Shown here: positions 50,141 through 58,592 of the stretch, in pieces
How positions within the stretch are numbered: the stretch's first letter is position 1
Layout: each line of letters begins with the position of its first letter
Source: Alphaproteobacteria bacterium
GTDB lineage: Bacteria > Pseudomonadota > Alphaproteobacteria > UBA8366
Length of the DNA stretch: 64,000 nt
Reading direction: 5' to 3'
NCBI GenBank assembly: GCA_021774335.1
Contig: JAJFJD010000005.1
Coordinates: forward strand, 17,632 to 81,631
The notes under the pieces: model-generated
Database searches by the model: none
Told to the model about the DNA's origin: nothing
The model's input: only the letters and a program-made list of their open reading frames with translations
Program-made: the position numbers and the translations under genes

Positions 50141-51007
50141 TCAGGTGCGTCCGGATGCCGCGAGGCCCCGTTCCAATCCGGCGAAGGACATCGTGGGTTG
50201 CGCCATCAGCCAACGGAACCCGCGCTCCAACAGCTCGTCCACATTGCCGGCGTCGACATGCGGATGGCCGCAGACCACGTCATGCTCCTTGCAGATGGTG
50301 AGGATGTCGTCGATGGCGGACGCGACCGTCGGGTGATCGTACTGACGCGGATATCCCAGATCCTGCGACAGGTCGCCTTCGCCGATCAGCACCACGCCGA
50401 TGCCTTGTACTTCCTCAAGCATCTTCGGCAGGTTTTTGATGGCGCGCTTTTCCTCGCACATGATCACGACCAATATTTCGCCGTCCGGGTTGAGCGGCCA
50501 GACGTCGGCGCGTTTGTAATAGGTCTGCTGGTCGATGCCCCAATAGCCGGCGGCGGTGCGCGGTCCATCGCCGCGTTGGCCCGCGGGGTCGAACAGTGGC
50601 GCTTCGGGCGGGCGAGGGTAGCGGCAGGCGGCCACCGCATTGCGCGCTTCGTCGACCGTGCTGACATGCGGCCAGATTACGCCGTAGACGCCAAGGTCGA
50701 GCACCTGCTTCGCCGTCCACTGGTTCATCTCGCCGCCATTCGGCGGAATGCGCACGAAGGGTGCGGTTGCGGGCGCGAGGCTACCACCCTCCAGAATCTG
50801 CCGCCGATCGAGCATATACTGCATGCAGTGGCGCATCGCGGTGACGTCATAGGCGCCATGCTCCATCTCGAACACCAGCGCATCATAGGGGGCGGCGTTG
50901 ATGGCCTGGGTTGCGCCGATCTCCGGCGCGGTAAAGGTGGTGAAGGCGGGCTTGCCCTGTTCGAGCGCCCGGATCGCGCCGTTCAGACGCGGCAAATTCT
51001 TGGCCAT
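50141..51007 (-). CDS. HpcH/HpaI-family aldolase
   Basis: GGGAGAG SD. YDALVFEMEHGAYD, VRIPPNG and IGEGDLSQDLG are typical of 2-keto-3-deoxy-acid aldolases. Confidence 0.85.
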   Translation of the reverse strand: MAKNLPRLNGAIRALEQGKPAFTTFTAPEIGATQAINAAPYDALVFEMEHGAYDVTAMRHCMQYMLDRRQILEGGSLAPATAPFVRIPPNGGEMNQWTAKQVLDLGVYGVIWPHVSTVDEARNAVAACRYPRPPEAPLFDPAGQRGDGPRTAAGYWGIDQQTYYKRADVWPLNPDGEILVVIMCEEKRAIKNLPKMLEEVQGIGVVLIGEGDLSQDLGYPRQYDHPTVASAIDDILTICKEHDVVCGHPHVDAGNVDELLERGFRWLMAQPTMSFAGLERGLAASGRT

Positions 51008-51034
51008 TGTAGCTCTCCCTAGTCTTGATTTCGG

Positions 51035-51883
51035 TTAGCGCTCGGCGAGCGCCAGCACACGCGTCATCGACCGTAGCACGGGGCGTTCGATCAACTCGCC
51101 GTCCACCACCAGCAAGCCGCTGTCGTGGTTGGCGAAGGCTTCGACGATGCGGCGCGCCTTGTCCACCTGTTCCGGGCTTGGGCTGAAGATGCCATTGATC
51201 ACTGGTATCTGCTTGGGGTGGATCGCCGCCTTGCCGGTGTAGCCGATCTCCGCGGATGCGCGCGCCGCCTCCTCAAGCCCCGGCATGTCGTTGAGGTCCA
51301 GAAACGGCACGTCGATCATGTCGACATCCGCGCCCGCGGCGGCATGGACCGCGCGCTGCCGGGCATGCAGCAGGCCGTCCCATGTCGGCTCGACCCGCAG
51401 GTCGGCGGCCATGTCGACCCCGCCGAACAATAGGGAATCGATACGGTCGCAGGACTGCGCAATGTCGTAGGCGGCGTTCAGCCCGTCATTGGTTTCGATG
51501 ATGACGTGAAACCGGATCGCGCCGTGCGGGCCGCTCAACAGGTCGGCCAGCAGGCGAACTTCGTCGGCGGTCTTCACCTTGGTCAGCATCAGTGCCGGCG
51601 GCGGCGTATCGGTCTCGCCGATCGCCAACACGTCGCGTTGCCCTTCCGGTGTGCGCAGGCAGTTGATGCGGACGATCCGCTCGACCCCATCGTCGGCCTG
51701 CGGCTCGGTGAACAGGGCCAGCGTCTTGTCGCGGGCAATTTGTTTGTGCTGCGGCGCGATGGCGTCTTCCAGATCGATGCAGACGATATCGCTGCCGGTC
51801 GTCAGTGCCTTGGGAAACATATCCGGATGGTCGCCTGGAACGAAAATCAGGCTGCGGCGCGGTTGGATCTTGGTATCGGTCAC
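51035..51883 (-). CDS. CitE/HpcH-family lyase (citrate lyase beta / malyl-CoA lyase-thioesterase-like)
   Basis: RRSLIFVPGD, DIVCIDLEDAI, RINC and GGVDMAADL are CitE-like motifs. Confidence 0.85.
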   Translation of the reverse strand: MTDTKIQPRRSLIFVPGDHPDMFPKALTTGSDIVCIDLEDAIAPQHKQIARDKTLALFTEPQADDGVERIVRINCLRTPEGQRDVLAIGETDTPPPALMLTKVKTADEVRLLADLLSGPHGAIRFHVIIETNDGLNAAYDIAQSCDRIDSLLFGGVDMAADLRVEPTWDGLLHARQRAVHAAAGADVDMIDVPFLDLNDMPGLEEAARASAEIGYTGKAAIHPKQIPVINGIFSPSPEQVDKARRIVEAFANHDSGLLVVDGELIERPVLRSMTRVLALAER

Positions 51884-51999
51884 TCTTTCGTAACTCCCCG
51901 TGCATTGCGTTTAGGCACCATCATACGTCAAATTGACCGGCACCGCCGCGCCGATTCTGGATTTCGCGGCAGAACGATCCGTATACCGGGAGCGCCGCC

Positions 52000-52713
52000 A
52001 TGTCCGAACCGCAACCCCGCCGGCCGATCCTGATAGTCGAGGACGACCGCAACATCGCCTCCCTGGTCGAGCAGTATCTGCAGAAGGATGGCTTCGAGAC
52101 GTTGAGCGCCGGCGACGGGGACAACGGCTTGGCCCTGGCGCGCCGCCAGAATCCGGCCTTGGTGATCCTGGACATCAATCTGCCTGGAATGGACGGCTGG
52201 GAAGTGTGCCGGGCGCTGCGGCGGGATTCCGACGTGCCGATCCTGATGCTGACGGCGCGCGCCGAGGAAATGGATCGCGTGGTCGGCCTGTCGATCGGTG
52301 CTGACGACTATGTCGTCAAACCGTTCAGCCCGCGCGAACTGGTGGAACGGGTGAAGGCGATCCTGCGCCGCACGACCGTCCGGGCCGAACCCTCGGCCGC
52401 TGTCATTCTGGAGTCCGGGCCGATCCGGCTGGACCCCGAACGGCATGCGGTCACGATGAACGGCACGGACGTGTCGCTGACGCCGTCCGAATTCAAACTG
52501 CTGCAGACCATGATGCAGACGCCGGGCAAGGTCTTCAGCCGCGATGAGCTGCTCGATCGACTTTATGACAACGGCGGGGTCGTGGTCGACCGTGTCATCG
52601 ACGTTCATATGGGCAAGCTGCGGCAAAAGCTGGAGCCGGACCCGTCGACGCCGCAATTCCTGCTGACGGTGCACGGTATCGGCTATCGCTTCGCCGATCC
52701 CAATACTCCCTAA
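52000..52713 (+). CDS. OmpR-family response regulator
   Basis: Receiver ILIVEDD...LVILDINLPGMDG...ILMLTAR...GADDYVVKPF, plus a winged-helix C-terminus HGIGYRF. Confidence 0.95.
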   Translation: MSEPQPRRPILIVEDDRNIASLVEQYLQKDGFETLSAGDGDNGLALARRQNPALVILDINLPGMDGWEVCRALRRDSDVPILMLTARAEEMDRVVGLSIGADDYVVKPFSPRELVERVKAILRRTTVRAEPSAAVILESGPIRLDPERHAVTMNGTDVSLTPSEFKLLQTMMQTPGKVFSRDELLDRLYDNGGVVVDRVIDVHMGKLRQKLEPDPSTPQFLLTVHGIGYRFADPNTP

Positions 52714-52729
52714 ACGCCAGGAGCCGATT

Positions 52730-53794
52730 ATGCGCGATAAGCTTTTGTGGAAATTGCTGGCGATCAACCTGCCGGTCATCGGCATGGTTATCCTGATCGT
52801 CTGGTTCGCGGTGGATTTCCTGGCCGCCGATTACTTCACCGTGCTGATGGAGGAGTACAAGATCTCTCCTTCCGACACGCACAGGATGTTTGTCGAATCG
52901 GTTCACCGCTATCTGATCCAGGCCAGCATCGTGGCCGCCGCGATCGCGGTTCTGCTGAGCTTCCTGTTGACGCGGACGGTGCTGCGGCCGCTATCGCAGA
53001 TGACCGAAATCAGCCAGCGTGTGGCGGCGGGCGATTACTCGGCGCGCGTCGAGGTGACCTCGAAGGACGAGGTGGGGCGGCTCGGTCTGGCCTTCAATCG
53101 CATGGCGGATAGCCTGGAAAAGATCGAGGGTCTCCGCCGCACCATGGTGGTCGATCTCGCCCATGAACTGCGCACGCCGCTAACCAGCTTGCGTGGCTAT
53201 TTCGAAGCGATGGAAGATGGCGTGGTCGAGGCGAACAAGGGAACCTTCGGAATTTTGCAGGACGAGATCATGCGTCTTGTCCGGCTCGTCGAGAGCCTGC
53301 ACCAGCTCACCAAGGCCGATGCGGCGAAGGCGTTCCTGAGCCGACAGCAGGTCGACCTGCCCGCACTGATCGCGCAGGCGTTGGAACTCGACCGCTTCCA
53401 ATTCCAGTCGCGCGACATCACCGTCGAGACCAAACTGCCGGCCGACCCGTTGATCGTGCAGGGGGACCGGGACAAGCTGCTGCAGGTGCTGCGCAACCTG
53501 ACGCAGAATGCCTGGCAGTACACGCCGGATGGCGGCAGGCTGACGGTCATCGCCGAAAGCGACGGCGACGGCATCACGGTGTCCTTCGCGAACACGGCGG
53601 CCGGTATCGTCGAGACGGATCTGCCGCTGATCTTCGAGCGCTTCTATCGTGTCGACAAGTCGCGGTCGCGCGACAGCGGCGGCGCGGGGATCGGCCTGAC
53701 CATCGTCAAGGAACTGGTCGAAGCGCATGGCGGGCGCGTCGGGGCCGACACCGGGGACGGGGATGTCCGCTTCTGGTTCGAATTGGACCGCTGA
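52730..53794 (+). CDS. Sensor histidine kinase (2 TM, short extracytoplasmic loop, HAMP, HisKA, HATPase)
   Basis: AGGAG SD. H-box AHELRTPLTSLRGY, N-box LRNLTQNAWQYT, and G-boxes GGAGIGLTIVKELVEAHGG. Confidence 0.9.
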   Translation: MRDKLLWKLLAINLPVIGMVILIVWFAVDFLAADYFTVLMEEYKISPSDTHRMFVESVHRYLIQASIVAAAIAVLLSFLLTRTVLRPLSQMTEISQRVAAGDYSARVEVTSKDEVGRLGLAFNRMADSLEKIEGLRRTMVVDLAHELRTPLTSLRGYFEAMEDGVVEANKGTFGILQDEIMRLVRLVESLHQLTKADAAKAFLSRQQVDLPALIAQALELDRFQFQSRDITVETKLPADPLIVQGDRDKLLQVLRNLTQNAWQYTPDGGRLTVIAESDGDGITVSFANTAAGIVETDLPLIFERFYRVDKSRSRDSGGAGIGLTIVKELVEAHGGRVGADTGDGDVRFWFELDR

Positions 53795-53976
53795 AACGCC
53801 CGGTTTCGGCCGGATTGCACCCTTACAAAATCTTTAAATCTTCCTTATCGGGACTTTACGTCTCTTTGCCACACTCCCCGGCATGGCCTCTTCGCCTGCT
53901 TTGCGGCGCGGACGGGGCCCAGAGGCTTCCGGGCCCCGCCAAGAGGGTCCACCAAATGCGTTTGGAGAAACAAATT

Positions 53977-54258
53977 ATGCAGAAGAAGAAATTGCCGCTC
54001 GCCCGCACCGCCCTCGCCCTTGGCGCCGCGGTTGCTCTGTCGAGCGCAGTTGCCCTGCCGACGGCGACCGCGATTGCCGGTGAGCGCATCCAGCTCGCCG
54101 CCTGTAAGGCGAACCCGTGTGCCGGCAAGAACCCCTGTGCGGCCAAGAAAGCGTGCAACCCGTGCGCTGCCAAGAATCCTTGCGCGGCCAAAAAGGCCTG
54201 CAACCCCTGCGCCGCGAAGAAGGCGTGCCGTCCTTGCAACCCCTGCAAAGCCAAGTAA
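53977..54258 (+). CDS. Secreted Cys-rich NPCAAK-repeat peptide (93 aa precursor)
   Basis: GGAG SD. Signal peptide MQKKKLPLARTALALGAAVALSSAVALPTATAIAG. The C-terminal 52 aa, ACKANPCAGKNPCAAKKACNPCAAKNPCAAKKACNPCAAKKACRPCNPCKAK, contain 11 Cys. Start moved to M55 of the track ORF. Confidence 0.7.
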   Translation: MQKKKLPLARTALALGAAVALSSAVALPTATAIAGERIQLAACKANPCAGKNPCAAKKACNPCAAKNPCAAKKACNPCAAKKACRPCNPCKAK

Positions 54259-54417
54259 CCCACCCAGGGTAACCGCTTGCGCGACGCGCATAGCCTTCAT
54301 GTGTCGGTCGAGGTGTCGCCACTGTCCCCCGTTGCGTGCTGGGTGGACGATGGTGGCCCTCGCCGCCATATCTCTTGCATAAGATCATTTGGGCAACCAG
54401 CGACGTAGGAGACGAGA

Positions 54418-55422
54418 ATGCTGATCCGCATACCGAAAGGGTGGGAACTGCCGGAATCGGCCGCGACACCCGAGAGCTTGTTTCGGGATCGCCGGCGCCT
54501 CATCAAGGCGGCCGCTGCGGGTCCGATCCTCTTGGGCATGCCGGCCCTGCTGGCGGCGTGCGACGACGGCGATCCCGCGGCGAAGGCAGCGCTGGAGGCC
54601 GGGGCCAAGATCCCCGATCCGTCCGCGAAGCTTTATCCGTTCGACCGCAATCCGAAGTTCACGCTCGACCGCCCGCTGACCGCGGAAAGACTCGCGACCA
54701 CGTATAACAATTATTACGAATTCGGCTCCTCGAAGAATATCCATGAGAAGGCGCAACGCCTGCCGATCCGGCCCTGGACGATTACGATCGCCGGCCAGGT
54801 CGAGAAGGAGTTCGAGATCGGCATGGACGACCTGCTGGCAAAGATGCCGTTGGAAGAGCGGCTCTACCGGCACCGTTGCGTCGAGGCCTGGTCGATGGCG
54901 GTGCCGTGGAGCGGTTTTGCGATGAAGGCGCTGGTCGATCTGGCCCGGCCGTTATCGTCGGCGAAATACGTGAAGATGGTGACCTTCGAGAATCCCAAGG
55001 TGGCGAGCGGACAAAGCGAGAGCTGGTACCCCTGGCCCTATGTCGAAGGGCTTAGCCTGGCCGAGGCGACGAACGACCTCGCCTTCCTGGCGACCGGGGT
55101 TTACGGCAAGACGATGCCGAAGCAGAACGGTGCGCCGTTGCGGCTGGCGGTGCCGTGGAAATATGGCTTTAAGTCGATCAAGGGGCTGGTGAGGTTCGAA
55201 TTCACGGACAAGCGCCCAGTCAGTTTTTGGGAACAGCTTCAGAACCGCGAGTATGGCTTCTGGGCCAACGTAAACCCGGAAGTGCCGCATCCCCGCTGGA
55301 GCCAGGCGACCGAACGTGTGCTCGGGGTCAACGGCCGGGTGCCGACGCTGCTTTACAACGGCTACGGCGAATTCGTCGCCGACCTGTACAAGGACATGTC
55401 GGGCGAAAAGCTGTTCTTATAG
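54418..55422 (+). CDS. msrP: Protein-methionine-sulfoxide reductase catalytic subunit MsrP (YedY, molybdopterin)
   Basis: Tat signal RDRRRLIKAAAAG. YNNYYEFGSSK, HRCVEAWSMAVPWSGF and LAVPWKYGFKSIK are MsrP hallmarks. AGGAGA SD. Confidence 0.9.
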   Translation: MLIRIPKGWELPESAATPESLFRDRRRLIKAAAAGPILLGMPALLAACDDGDPAAKAALEAGAKIPDPSAKLYPFDRNPKFTLDRPLTAERLATTYNNYYEFGSSKNIHEKAQRLPIRPWTITIAGQVEKEFEIGMDDLLAKMPLEERLYRHRCVEAWSMAVPWSGFAMKALVDLARPLSSAKYVKMVTFENPKVASGQSESWYPWPYVEGLSLAEATNDLAFLATGVYGKTMPKQNGAPLRLAVPWKYGFKSIKGLVRFEFTDKRPVSFWEQLQNREYGFWANVNPEVPHPRWSQATERVLGVNGRVPTLLYNGYGEFVADLYKDMSGEKLFL

Positions 55423-55428
55423 AGGCTA

Positions 55429-56466
55429 TTAGCGGATCTTGGTTTCGTCCGGCTTGCAGTTGATCCCGAACAGCGTGCATTCGAGCGGCTGGATGAACGG
55501 ATCGTTCTGGTCGCCAGTTTCCTGATCGGTGAGTTCTTCCGATCCTGGTCCGGTCGGATCGACCTCGCCATCCAGCGGGCCATGGTCGTCCGTATAGCCC
55601 AATCCTGATTCCTGATCGGTCAGCGCTGCCGATCCGATGCCCGTGGGATCGACTTCGCCGTCACCCGGCCCGTGATCGTCGTCGAAGCCTTCATTACCCT
55701 CTTCTTCAATTTCGGCAAACCGGTCGGAGCAGTCGGGCAGCGTGACGGCGACCGGCACGATCACCTCCGATTTTGCCGGCAATTTTGTGCCGGCGGGCAG
55801 CGGCAGGCGCGGCGCGCGCCGTATATTGTCGCCGATAGCGGCGTCGACCGGTCCGTATCCGGTGCCACGGAGGATCTTGTAGGCCGAGATCCAGCCTTCC
55901 GCGTTGACGGTTAGGCGGACAAGGGCGATGCGCTGCTCGCAGTTGGTCGTCGCCGACCATGGATAGGCGATCAGCGATTTCAGCATCTTCTGCAGATCCG
56001 GGCGTGGCGCCGGCGGCGGGTCGACAACCGCAGGCGGCCGCGGTTTTGGCTCGGGTTTCGGCTGCGGCGCGGGCTTGGGATCAGGCTTGGGTTCCGTTTT
56101 TGGCTCTGGCTTGGGCGGCGGCTTGGCCGCGACCGGCTCGGGTTTCGGCTCTGGTTTCTTCGGTGGTTCCGGTTTGGGGATCGGGATGGCGGCCGGGTCC
56201 GGGACCGGGTCGGCGGGGGCTGGCTCGATCGGAACCGGGGCGGGTGGTGTCGCCTCGACCGGTTCCGGCGGCGGCGGCGGTGGCGGCAGCAGTGGCGCGA
56301 CTTCCAGGACCGGCGGCGGCAGGAACACCATGTTGATCTGTTTTTCCCGCCGGTCAAGATCGTGGGTTTCGAAGGAGGATAGATAAAAGGCCGCCGAGGC
56401 GACCGCGATATGGGCCACGACGGACGTGAAAATTGGTAAGCGGATGGTCCAGCGGAATTTCGGCAT
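55429..56466 (-). CDS. TonB-family energy transducer-like protein with acidic C-terminal repeat extension
   Basis: N-terminal TM anchor, a long Pro/Lys/Glu-rich spacer (PEPKPEP...), and a TonB-C-like module (RLTVNAEGWISAYKILRGTGYGPVDAAIGDNI). This is followed by two roughly 30-aa acidic repeats, DDHGPxDGEVDPTGxGSxxLTDQExG. Confidence 0.65.
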   Translation of the reverse strand: MPKFRWTIRLPIFTSVVAHIAVASAAFYLSSFETHDLDRREKQINMVFLPPPVLEVAPLLPPPPPPPEPVEATPPAPVPIEPAPADPVPDPAAIPIPKPEPPKKPEPKPEPVAAKPPPKPEPKTEPKPDPKPAPQPKPEPKPRPPAVVDPPPAPRPDLQKMLKSLIAYPWSATTNCEQRIALVRLTVNAEGWISAYKILRGTGYGPVDAAIGDNIRRAPRLPLPAGTKLPAKSEVIVPVAVTLPDCSDRFAEIEEEGNEGFDDDHGPGDGEVDPTGIGSAALTDQESGLGYTDDHGPLDGEVDPTGPGSEELTDQETGDQNDPFIQPLECTLFGINCKPDETKIR

Positions 56467-56662
56467 CCGTCCGATGCTCTGGTTCAGGTGTGGCCCCGGG
56501 GCGTGACGCGAATCTCGCCAGGGGTAGGTGCCCTGGGATACTGCTCAGAATCGCAGGCAGACACCATACCCACTATGTAGAAGTGGCATTTGCGGGCCCT
56601 TTTGCTGAAAGCTGAGAATCGCCGAATTTCAGTAGGTTAAACGCCATTAAGGCCTTGTTAAG

Positions 56663-57043
56663 GTGGTCGGCGGACTCTGGTGCGTGTGGGCCGGTCTCGG
56701 GCCGCCCGCCCGATCCAAGAGGAGCACCTTGATCGTGGATACGGCCACAATCGGCATGATCGCCACCTGGGCCTTGCCTGTACTCGCATGCTTGGTCGCG
56801 TTCGTCATAACCATTAATTCGATTCGGCGCATTCGGTCGGACCGGCAACGGCGGCTCGTCGCCCGTGCCATTCTGGGCACCTGGGCGGTGGTAGCGCTGT
56901 TGCTTCCTATCGTGTTGTTGGGTGCGCTTGGCGTGTTGCCCCGCTGGACCTATGGCAGCGCATCTGGCCTCATGCTGATCGCTTCGGCGGTCGGCGGCTG
57001 GATCGTCATGCGGCGGTCTACCCATACGCCGGGTTGGCGATAG
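56663..57043 (+). CDS. Hypothetical membrane protein
   Basis: 126-aa ORF with 3-4 hydrophobic helices. No motif recognised, and the start is uncertain. Confidence 0.4.
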   Translation: MVGGLWCVWAGLGPPARSKRSTLIVDTATIGMIATWALPVLACLVAFVITINSIRRIRSDRQRRLVARAILGTWAVVALLLPIVLLGALGVLPRWTYGSASGLMLIASAVGGWIVMRRSTHTPGWR

Positions 57044-57044
57044 G

Positions 57045-58592
57045 TCATCGCTTCCGGTTCGGCACCCGGACGAAAAACACCAACGGCAGAATGGCGATGC
57101 TGAGCACCGTATAGGCGGTGAAGGCGTTGATATAGCCGATCATGAAAGCCTGCCGGCCGACCTCGCCGCTTAAGGTCGCCAATCCGCGCAAACTCTCCGA
57201 ACTCCATAGCCCGAGCGCCGAGGACTCCTGCAGCGCATCGTTGAAGGGCGTTACGAATTCCGTCATGCGGGCGTAGTTTTCCTGCCCGGTGTGCAACACG
57301 ATCACCACGCTGATCGAGACGAAGGCGCTTGCCGCGATGTAGCGCAGCAGATGAAACACCGCGGTCGCCTCGTTCAAATGCTCCCGGGGCAGCGTGGAAA
57401 AGGAGGCGACGACCAGCGGCACCCAGATCAACCCGACGGCGAATCCCTGCATGACGCTGGTCAGCGCCACGTCAAAGGCGGTCAGGTTGACGTCGAACGC
57501 CATCATCCACCAGCCGGACACCGCCTGTATGAGAAAACCGGCGGTCATCCCGATACGCGGATCGAGCTTGCCGACCCAGATCGAGGCGAAGAAACCCAAC
57601 ATCCCGCCGAACCCGCGCGTCCCGATCAGGAAACCGATGGCGTCGTCGGGATAGCCGGCAAGGTTCTGCAACAGCGGCGGCAGCAGTGCCATCGGGGTGA
57701 AATTCATCATGCCGAAGATCAGTACGACCATAAGACCGATCGCGTAGTTCCGGTCGAGCAGCAGGCGCGGGTTGAGGAACGGCCGGCGGCTGGTCAGGCT
57801 GTGAACGATGAAGACGTAGAAGGCCGCCGCGGCCAGGCCCGCCTGGATTACGATCTCGACGGAGTTGAACCAGTCTTCCTGTTCGCCGCGGTCGAGCACG
57901 AGCTGGAAACACAGGATGGCGATCGCCAGCGTGATGAACCCGGTCCAGTCGAGCGTGAGCTTCGCCTCGCGGCGGTCGTCGCGGATGAAGACGATCGCAC
58001 CAATCACCGCCAGTATCCCGGCGATTCCCACCGCGATGAAGGCCCAGCGCCAGGTATAGGCGTCCGCGATATAACCGCCGAGGATTGGTCCGAGCATCGG
58101 CCCGATGACCACGCCGACGCCGTAGATCGAATTGACCGTGCCGTGTTGTTCGCGCGGGAAGGTGTCCAGCACGATGGCGTTCGACAGCGGGTTGAGCGGC
58201 GCGCCGAACACGCCCTGCAACACACGGTACAGCACCAGCACTTCGAGGCTGTTGGCGGTACCGCAGAGGATCGTGGAGGCGACGAACCCGATCGTGCTGT
58301 AGATCATCACGTTGCGCCGGCCGAACCGGTTGGCCAGCCACCCGGTCATCGGCGTCACCACGGCAATCGCGATGATGTTGAAGGTAATGACCCAGGCGAC
58401 CTGATCCTGAGTCGCCGACAGTGAACCCTGCAACTGCGGCATGATCACGCTGACGATCATCAGGGTCATGCTGACGAGCATCGTCGCCAAAGTCGCCGTC
58501 GCCAGGATCATGGCGCGCTGAAACGCGCCGGGGCTGGCCGGGGTCGCGGGGCCGCCGTCGCTTTCGGTCTCGGCGGTTGATACGGCGCTCAT
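57045..58592 (-). CDS. MFS transporter, DHA2/EmrB-like (14-TMS)
   Basis: 515 aa. LATMLVSMTLMIVSVIMPQLQGSL, motif A-like GWLANRFGRRNVM, and many TM helices. Confidence 0.9.
   Translation of the reverse strand: MSAVSTAETESDGGPATPASPGAFQRAMILATATLATMLVSMTLMIVSVIMPQLQGSLSATQDQVAWVITFNIIAIAVVTPMTGWLANRFGRRNVMIYSTIGFVASTILCGTANSLEVLVLYRVLQGVFGAPLNPLSNAIVLDTFPREQHGTVNSIYGVGVVIGPMLGPILGGYIADAYTWRWAFIAVGIAGILAVIGAIVFIRDDRREAKLTLDWTGFITLAIAILCFQLVLDRGEQEDWFNSVEIVIQAGLAAAAFYVFIVHSLTSRRPFLNPRLLLDRNYAIGLMVVLIFGMMNFTPMALLPPLLQNLAGYPDDAIGFLIGTRGFGGMLGFFASIWVGKLDPRIGMTAGFLIQAVSGWWMMAFDVNLTAFDVALTSVMQGFAVGLIWVPLVVASFSTLPREHLNEATAVFHLLRYIAASAFVSISVVIVLHTGQENYARMTEFVTPFNDALQESSALGLWSSESLRGLATLSGEVGRQAFMIGYINAFTAYTVLSIAILPLVFFVRVPNRKR

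Follow-up and report, generated by a model that had tools for sequence, protein, structure and literature searches.

The known periplasmic defences against copper and chlorine-type oxidants are of three types: Met/His sponges, Met-rich decoys that the methionine-sulfoxide reductase MsrP recycles, and, in the bufferins, cysteines that are masked enzymatically. PcoE and SilE are periplasmic metal sponges under the control of CusRS, PcoRS and SilRS; they are disordered, exported and strongly induced, and their Met and His ligands suit an oxidising periplasm. Classical metallothioneins are defined as small proteins with a high Cys content, CxC or CxxC motifs and neither aromatic residues nor His; they are cytoplasmic and, in the apo form, disordered, as are PcoE and SilE. 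In Azospira suillum, the stress-induced, Sec-exported, Met-rich peptide MrpX is recycled by the MsrP enzyme YedY1, both being under the control of SigF/NrsF (PMC4436054). CutF (DUF2946) of Rhodobacter capsulatus, finally, is a translational copper sensor (PMC9973294). Here, we analysed a 64,000-nucleotide (nt) stretch of an alphaproteobacterial genome (contig JAJFJD010000005.1, positions 17,632 to 81,631; 'the window'), in which a small poly-Cys peptide is encoded at positions 53977–54258 between a two-component system and msrP.

MrpX is the closest working analogy to this peptide. Both are small, Sec-exported, low-complexity peptides that are rich in one oxidisable sulfur residue and are found together with a periplasmic MsrP and what appears to be a dedicated envelope-stress sensor. 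However, MrpX is Met-rich and regenerated by MsrP, whereas the window peptide has 11 Cys and no Met; its locus has an OmpR-type two-component system rather than an extracytoplasmic function (ECF) sigma/anti-sigma pair, and the two show no sequence similarity. The window peptide is not a member of the MrpX kind. With PcoE and SilE it would share the behaviour of a disordered, exported small protein that has its own two-component-system-dependent promoter and serves as a first-line stoichiometric buffer, as is predicted or proposed below; it differs from them in using Cys and Lys, and its sensor is not an ortholog of CusS or CopS. Its likeness to metallothioneins (SmtA/BmtA, MymT, vertebrate MT) extends to ∼20% Cys with CxxC motifs, Lys beside Cys, the lack of His and aromatic residues, and predicted metal-free disorder, but the peptide is exported and has no sequence homology to them.

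Evidence for a conserved, unannotated peptide gene

The preliminary description of the window, made from its letters alone, had proposed a secreted 11-Cys repeat peptide at 53977–54258, and the reading frame and the Sec-type signal layout were confirmed, the Cys spacing being exactly as claimed. In four same-genus genomes the peptide was 94–95% identical. Compared with these four congeners, 13–24 codon changes were synonymous and 5–6 non-synonymous, and 15–25 of the 20–32 substitutions fell at third codon positions; by this pattern, purifying selection acts on the frame. Seven codons further upstream there is an in-frame ATG that is not conserved, the congeners having ACG in its place, and we therefore take 53977 as the true start. 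The ribosome-binding site, the start and the signal peptide are kept in the congeners.

Homologs retain the NPC/CxxC pattern, as the preliminary description had expected. When 5.8 billion proteins were searched by a word-seeded method, 202 of them were obtained at E ≤ 0.01, all 72–159 amino acids (aa) long and, in those inspected, of the same architecture; every one was nameless or a 'hypothetical protein', and a precomputed Pfam domain was present in only one. The exact window sequence was absent from 15 billion predicted proteins, whereas its three neighbours were present there, so that gene callers had evidently skipped the open reading frame (ORF), which is overlapped by long antisense ORFs. 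A literature search for NPCAAK-type repeat strings found no relevant match, and a topic search yielded analogies only. Taken together, these comparisons indicate that the exported poly-Cys peptide at 53977–54258 is the product of a genuine gene, which is conserved but has escaped annotation.

The hydropathy profile, read by eye, shows a basic start, a hydrophobic stretch of ∼20 aa and A-I-A before Gly35, a signal-peptide layout that was common to the whole NPC family in the homologs inspected. The mature part of 59 residues contains 16 Ala, 11 Cys, 11 Lys, 7 Pro and 6 Asn, which corresponds to 19% Cys, 19% Lys and a net charge of about +12; Met, His and the aromatic residues Phe, Tyr and Trp are absent. 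Successive Cys are separated by 4, 5, 5, 2, 5, 5, 2, 5, 2 and 2 residues, so that CxxC occurs three times. The C-terminus reads ...KKACRPCNPCKAK, and there is no PP motif in the last 15 residues. Within the array, a 45-bp DNA repeat is present in 2.4 copies at 54112–54221. An AlphaFold model of the peptide had a mean predicted local distance difference test (pLDDT) score of 46 and no secondary structure, and the mature peptide is accordingly predicted to be intrinsically disordered. No Pfam or NCBIfam family matched the peptide at E ≤ 0.01, including DUF2282, BUF_6/12Cys and DUF2946.

Two other readings of the ORF were rejected. The conserved IQLAAC motif could be taken for a lipobox, but its Cys lies ∼15 residues past the hydrophobic core with charged residues in between, and position −1 is Q or S in many homologs. 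A leader that acts as a Cys-codon attenuator is at odds with the signal peptide, with stand-alone paralogs and with domain fusions.

A two-component system with a single putative target promoter

The Pfam and NCBIfam matches agree with the claim that the gene is flanked by an OmpR-type response regulator/histidine kinase pair, the kinase having a short outer loop, and by MsrP. The intergenic distances of 183 and 160 nt had to be corrected, to 182 nt between the kinase stop and the peptide gene and 159 nt between the peptide gene and the msrP start. The regulator scored below every NCBIfam equivalog cut-off (best match BaeR, 241 bits versus 380), and its orthologs, with 64–92% identity, adjoin the kinase in all linked loci. 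The outer loop of the kinase is highly conserved (DFLAADYFTxLMxxYxIxPxDTHxMFxxxxHxY), with invariant Met, His and Phe.

We searched 61 related genomes for homologs of the kinase, the NPC peptide and DUF6969, a protein family described below. Kinase orthologs (≥57% identity) were found in exactly 13 of the 61, one copy each, in four genera of two families. In 12 of these 13 genomes the kinase was on the same contig as an NPC peptide; the thirteenth is fragmented, and there the peptide and MsrP lie together on another short contig.

When the 230 nt upstream of the peptide genes were aligned, a 37-bp box with the pattern TTAC-N7-TTAA-N7-TTAT-N7-TTAC was near-identical base for base in 13/13 linked promoters, while its flanks had diverged. 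The window copy reads CCTTACAAAATCTTTAAATCTTCCTTATCGGGACTTTACGTC. Where kinase and peptide are separated (loci L087, L093 and L095), the box stays directly 5′ of the peptide gene. The pattern had a single match in the 5.4-Mb genome, with no second copy, and in 1.3 Mb of fetched loci it occurred only in those with the two-component system and at none of the unlinked NPC peptide loci. Tandem words at an 11-bp period are the arrangement expected for binding of an OmpR/PhoB-type regulator, and the regulator probably binds this box. Because the box is unique and limited to linked loci, the two-component system appears to be dedicated to one promoter, that of the peptide. A promoter consensus scan gave no sigma-70 match, and terminator-like sites were no more numerous than in shuffled sequence.

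In L087 (3032–6882), from the same-genus genome G002, an insert of ∼4 kb lies between the kinase and the peptide gene, and the box is still peptide-adjacent. The upstream alignment also showed a GC-rich hairpin, GGGGCCC...GGGCCCC, in the 5′ untranslated region of the peptide gene (window 53910–53940). In other lineages, a hairpin-capable stretch of different sequence occupies the same place, as seen in the alignment only.

MsrP and the short and long forms of the operon

MsrP lies downstream of the peptide in every linked locus long enough to show it. In the window's genus the gene order is regulator, kinase, peptide and MsrP, followed by a TonB-like gene on the opposite strand. Other lineages carry three genes between the peptide and msrP, encoding a 143-aa and a 182-aa secreted protein and SCO1/SenC (PF02630), a copper chaperone and thiol-disulfide oxidoreductase; as the intergenic gaps are only 3–70 nt, we regard this long form as one operon. 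The 143-aa protein is the next gene after the peptide in most lineages, 20–100 nt away. Two metagenome contigs outside GTDB, found via close homologs, had the same order of regulator, kinase, peptide, 143-aa protein, 181-aa protein and SCO1. Tabulation of gene neighbours thus bore out the proposed linkage to the two-component system and msrP: the order regulator–kinase–peptide–(143-aa protein–182-aa protein–Sco)–MsrP is conserved across two families, and by this comparison the window's genus holds a shortened form of the operon.

The two intervening proteins (∼143–163 aa and 181–182 aa; L093:7509–8493, L128:5400–6381, L129:1260–2304), which in the long form always lie between the peptide and SCO1/SenC, share a weak Cys pattern, V-D-x2-C ... 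C-x3-C-x-G-G. They have no Pfam or NCBIfam relatives, a PDB sequence search gave nothing usable, and no homologs of either were found in the window's own genome. The TonB-like gene (window 55429–56466, − strand), which is convergent with msrP, occupies the same position in 3/4 same-genus genomes (74–87% identity) and is not conserved there in other lineages. Elsewhere in the genome, another OmpR-type regulator/kinase pair (C55:26017–29306) adjoins the closest SCO1/SenC paralog, which is 44% identical to the Sco of the long-form operon.

Window MsrP has a twin-arginine translocation (Tat) RRR motif and the lipobox LLAAC-D. All linked MsrP orthologs likewise have a twin-arginine motif and an L(L/I)(A/S)(A/G)C-D lipobox (the latter read by eye); a Tat signal with a lipobox followed by Asp predicts a Tat lipoprotein retained at the inner membrane. 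No msrQ follows the window msrP, and no MsrQ was found in the genome, where the only Ferric_reduct domain belongs to a 444-aa fusion protein whose C-terminal part resembles an oxidoreductase and which is encoded on another contig (C53:82007–82372). A second MsrP paralog (C1:206645–207622; 64% identity) is soluble, adjoins Dps and is also without an adjacent msrQ.

The spacer between the peptide gene and msrP can form a long hairpin. The 171-nt region 54250–54420 folded with −68 kcal/mol (z = −2.0). The hairpin sequence is kept in the genus and the hairpin is predicted in 3/4 congeners, with locus L089 folding differently; covariation was not evident, and an Rfam search of 53700–54500 gave no match. 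The Shine–Dalgarno (SD) sequence of msrP is partly paired in the window fold, and its pairing partner differs among congeners. The hairpin is a candidate transcript stabiliser, partial terminator favouring the peptide over MsrP, or translational gate, and the peptide gene and msrP are probably co-transcribed. The features of the locus are collected in Table 1.

Table 1. Features of the peptide locus, in window coordinates
Feature	Position	Strand	Details
OmpR/PhoB-type response regulator	52000–52713	+	Receiver domain and winged-helix Trans_reg_C (Pfam PF00072, PF00486)
Sensor histidine kinase	52730–53794	+	Two transmembrane segments, ∼33-aa outer loop, HAMP, HisKA, HATPase
37-bp box, four direct TTAN repeats, 11-bp period	53823–53859	+	TTACaaaatctTTAAatcttccTTATcgggactTTAC; putative response-regulator site
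Shine–Dalgarno GGAGAA	53964–53969	+	7 nt 5′ of ATG; read from sequence; kept in congeners
Poly-Cys peptide ORF	53977–54258	+	93-aa product; read from ORF/translation
Sec-type signal peptide, 34 aa	53977–54078	+	MQKKK, hydrophobic core, AIA/G; hydropathy; cleavage site placed by eye
Mature 59-aa poly-Cys peptide and stop codon	54079–54258	+	GERIQLAA, then NPCAAK-type array (11 Cys, 11 Lys)
Imperfect hairpin in peptide–msrP spacer, 73 nt	54299–54371	+	No U tract; fold of 54250–54420
MsrP, periplasmic methionine-sulfoxide reductase (Mo enzyme)	54418–55422	+	NF003767, 410 bits versus cut-off 207

The wider family of NPC-repeat proteins

The inspected homologs are built alike, with (C)NPC(NPC)AAK(K) units after a signal peptide, and in an alignment with 26 homologs the N-P-C columns were invariant. 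Across 120 homologs, A, C, P, N and K made up 89% of mature residues, with Cys at 21% family-wide; the gaps between Cys were mostly 2 and 5 residues (CxxC, Cx5C), and Asn-Pro preceded 976 of the ∼1400 Cys examined. We also scanned GTDB representative genomes with the single window peptide as query and clustered the neighbouring genes. This gave 62 loci with NPC-type peptides, mostly in Beta- and Gammaproteobacteria and some in Rokubacteria and Alphaproteobacteria. The commonest partner was DUF6969, encoded by an adjacent gene in 42/62 loci. Frequent companions were a SoxA/TsdA-like cytochrome c domain, at times fused to the repeats, a multihaem cytochrome, DUF302, a YeeE/YedE sulfur transporter, DUF3179 and an ECF sigma factor, and just one locus (L001) shared the kinase and MsrP. 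By repeat and composition, the window peptide is a member of a large, widespread, undescribed NPCAAK cysteine-repeat family.

The neighbour of the betaproteobacterial ECF sigma factor was considered as an NrsF-type anti-sigma factor and rejected; read by eye, it has a soluble-looking N-terminus with a Cys/His motif. As it looks unlike NrsF, we did not extend the SigF/NrsF analogy.

NPC proteins and DUF6969 elsewhere in the genome

The genome encodes two further NPC-repeat proteins. One is a 92-aa paralog (C53:50035–50313, − strand; L064:8036–8314) with the sequence MLKKTV...IQLAACKAACNPCKAKK..., rich in CNPCK units, which sits between a TauD-family gene and CutA1 and has neither a two-component system nor the 37-bp box. 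The other is a 400-aa exported protein (C11:102042–103280, + strand; L065:8079–9281) in which two long NPC arrays are followed by a cytochrome P460 domain (PF16694) and a C-terminal CxxCH; it adjoins a small cytochrome c and a Sel1-like gene.

DUF6969 is encoded once, on another contig (C4:120487–121095) and not adjacent to the window peptide. There it forms a cluster (C4:119400–121700; L066:7419–9714) with a preceding gene for an exported FGE-sulfatase-domain protein and a convergent one for an exported rhodanese. The exported FGE-domain protein directly precedes DUF6969 in 13/21 loci of this order, and the rhodanese is often convergent. Among the 61 relatives, 28 had DUF6969 and an NPC peptide, 3 the peptide only, 10 DUF6969 only and 20 neither (odds ratio 18.7, Fisher p = 4e-6, not corrected for phylogeny); DUF6969 was present in 11/13 genomes of the two-component-system type. 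The protein has invariant His, Glu and Asp clusters and, read by eye, no signal peptide, hence it is presumably cytoplasmic. Its model was confident (pLDDT 90.7, predicted template modelling score 0.90). A Foldseek search with this model found no structural relatives in the PDB (best E 1.1, TM-score ≤ 0.18), a PDB sequence search gave nothing usable, and a literature search for DUF6969/PF22308 found no relevant match.

The preliminary description had also suggested a bufferin-type precursor of a ribosomally synthesised and post-translationally modified peptide (RiPP). The window peptide resembles the bufferins (BufA1/DUF2282 and BUF_6/12Cys, with the MNIO protein BufB and the DUF2063 protein BufC) in being Cys-rich, exported and apparently stress-regulated, and its precursor carries a Sec signal peptide, as judged by eye from N-terminal layout and hydropathy. 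It differs from them in its repeat architecture, which is unlike the bufferin core, and in having no DUF2282 or BUF match. Furthermore, no match to MNIO (DUF692, PF05114) was found in the whole 5.4-Mb genome (97% complete), although the same search detected it in the control, Caulobacter vibrioides. DUF2063 had no match among the eight ORFs scanned at 50141–58592, the genome itself not having been searched for it. We therefore dropped the bufferin/MNIO assignment for this genome, given the lack of a DUF2282/BUF match and of a PF05114 gene.

A proposed thiol-buffer model for the window peptide

Our best explanation, to which we assign a probability of roughly 0.4, is that the peptide is a disordered thiol buffer, induced by stress, that takes up copper-type metals or oxidants of the chlorine type stoichiometrically in the periplasm. 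It would head a small envelope-stress operon and be its main product. The kinase, with only its short conserved His- and Met-containing outer loop, would sense thiophilic stress in the periplasm, and the phosphorylated OmpR-type regulator would bind the four 11-bp-spaced TTAN repeats and activate one promoter. The transcript would give rise to large amounts of Sec-exported, disordered, strongly basic peptide with a Cys every 3–6 residues, whose thiolates would take up the stressor stoichiometrically, either in metal–thiolate clusters or by their own oxidation. Neighbouring lysines could lower the thiolate pKa and balance charge, as in metallothioneins, while the co-transcribed, inner-membrane-anchored MsrP would repair methionine sulfoxide in other envelope proteins. 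In this scheme we infer the identity of the signal, the presence of free thiols in vivo and the identity of what these thiols bind.

Both an oxidant sink and a soft-metal chelator would fit the context of MsrP and, in the long form, SCO1/SenC. The presence of SCO1/SenC in the long operon, a kinase loop with Met, His and Phe, and one promoter that depends on the two-component system resemble the logic of a metal sponge like PcoE/SilE. As the signal and stressor, we slightly favour soft metals of the Cu(I) type over oxidants of the chlorine type.

Several points weigh against a thiol buffer of this kind. The periplasm is oxidising, and DsbA may turn the CxxC pairs into disulfides, abolishing both proposed activities. 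As the peptide lacks Met, MsrP cannot recycle it in the way it recycles MrpX. The Cys count is odd in 44/120 homologs, and CxxC is not conserved, two Cys being replaced by Gly in one congener and Ser appearing in P0001 and P0005. Nor is the regulator–kinase pair orthologous to CusRS, CopRS or HprRS. Finally, members of the wider family occur together with SoxA/TsdA-like and P460 haem domains, YeeE, rhodanese and DUF6969, a setting that suggests sulfur chemistry or modification more than the buffering of metals or oxidants.

Alternative explanations

This setting would be accommodated if the repeats are a sulfur-carrier arm, deployed here by the two-component system, whose Cys carry sulfane sulfur or thiosulfate (as persulfide, polysulfide or S-thiosulfonate) in the way that the SoxY Cys does for SoxAX, with Lys stabilising the anionic adducts. 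Like SoxY, the NPC proteins would offer exported Cys to SoxA-type haem proteins: SoxA/TsdA-like cytochrome c domains occur next to relatives of the window peptide or in fusion with them, and the repeats also have multihaem cytochromes, YeeE/YedE sulfur transporters and DUF302 as neighbours. In the same genome an NPC array is fused to a cytochrome P460 domain, and the exported rhodanese gene adjoins the orphan DUF6969 convergently. The invariant unit, moreover, is a single NPC and not a Cys pair. However, none of these sulfur genes is present in the loci that combine the two-component system, peptide and MsrP, and MsrP and Sco are a misfit for a sulfur-oxidation pathway. SoxY, the partner of SoxZ, has a folded domain whose GGCGG tail contains a single Cys, whereas the window peptide has 11 Cys, no fold, no GGCGG-type end, no SoxZ partner and no Sox genes in its locus. 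We consider a sulfur carrier unlikely for the window peptide.

A further alternative is a modified peptide. In a RiPP-like or client peptide, the Cys would be converted or loaded by enzymes encoded elsewhere in the genome, with DUF6969 and the exported FGE-sulfatase-domain protein as candidates, and the mature product rather than the plain thiols would be active. The adjacency of the DUF6969 gene in most GTDB NPC loci, its co-occurrence with NPC peptides among the relatives and its presence in nearly all genomes of the two-component-system type speak for this, as do its invariant residue clusters, its confident model without a fold relative in the PDB and the FGE-domain gene that often precedes it. 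FGE enzymes act on C-x-P motifs, whose Cys they oxidise, and CNPC includes such a motif; the Cys of the NPC unit, however, follows Pro, unlike that in the FGE CxPxR motif. DUF6969 has no known enzymatic activity, lacks a signal peptide as read by eye and is encoded on another contig, 10 genomes hold it without an NPC peptide, and the genome has no MNIO gene. Modification of this kind seems distinctly unlikely.

A broader version is a speculative idea that we would not expect to hold, namely that NPCAAK arrays are a new class of exported poly-Cys modules served by cytoplasmic DUF6969, which in this order of bacteria is paired with an exported FGE-type Cys-oxidising enzyme. The modules would be loaded or converted and then function on their own, as free peptides, or as arms attached to haem enzymes of the periplasm, and the local two-component system would be the family's first identifiable sensor.

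A regulatory role is more doubtful still. The peptide could be a CpxP-like feedback partner of the kinase, and it is possibly the ligand of this kinase, as the preliminary description had suggested; the single apparent target promoter of the two-component system is the peptide's own, and the kinase is almost without a sensor domain of its own. Alternatively, it could act like CutF, as a nascent exported sensor whose ligand-slowed export opens the spacer hairpin and thereby licenses msrP translation. The strong conserved hairpin, with the msrP SD partly paired in the window fold, would agree with this, and CutF, too, is a small Sec-exported protein with a Cys motif, whose gene precedes a stem-loop and the gene for a Tat-exported enzyme (PMC9973294). 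However, the window peptide has no DUF2946 match and no C-terminal PP stalling motif, the pairing between hairpin and SD is not conserved among congeners, and in most lineages the gene that follows is that for the 143-aa protein and not msrP. The NPC family is also found far from any downstream enzyme gene, its repeats making up genes of their own or forming the arms of large haem proteins, unlike a cis-acting leader.

That the ORF is non-functional, either a chance frame in GC-rich DNA or a decaying repeat, is almost certainly wrong: its absence from the predicted proteins and the overlapping antisense ORFs would be consistent with this, but the synonymous excess, the conserved ribosome-binding site, start and signal peptide, the >200 homologs and the conserved dedicated promoter box all argue against it.

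Implications

Returning to the thiol buffer that we favour, a plain poly-Cys peptide exported to an oxidising compartment fits none of the types of periplasmic defence outlined at the beginning. As far as the conserved gene order and the shared box indicate, the peptide is part of a module with a dedicated sensor, a dedicated putative operator and MsrP, which recurs across two families, and the sensor appears to switch on the peptide together with MsrP. MsrP is here a predicted Tat lipoprotein anchored in the membrane, and no MsrQ was found in the genome, which raises the question of its electron donor. The NPC family comprises hundreds of members that are without a model or a name and usually without a gene call; the window locus, in which a single sensor goes with one promoter and its conserved putative operator, offers the most tractable way into it. 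Should NPCAAK arrays indeed be a common class of exported modules, this local sensor and its single conserved operator would provide an experimental handle on the signal that the whole family answers.

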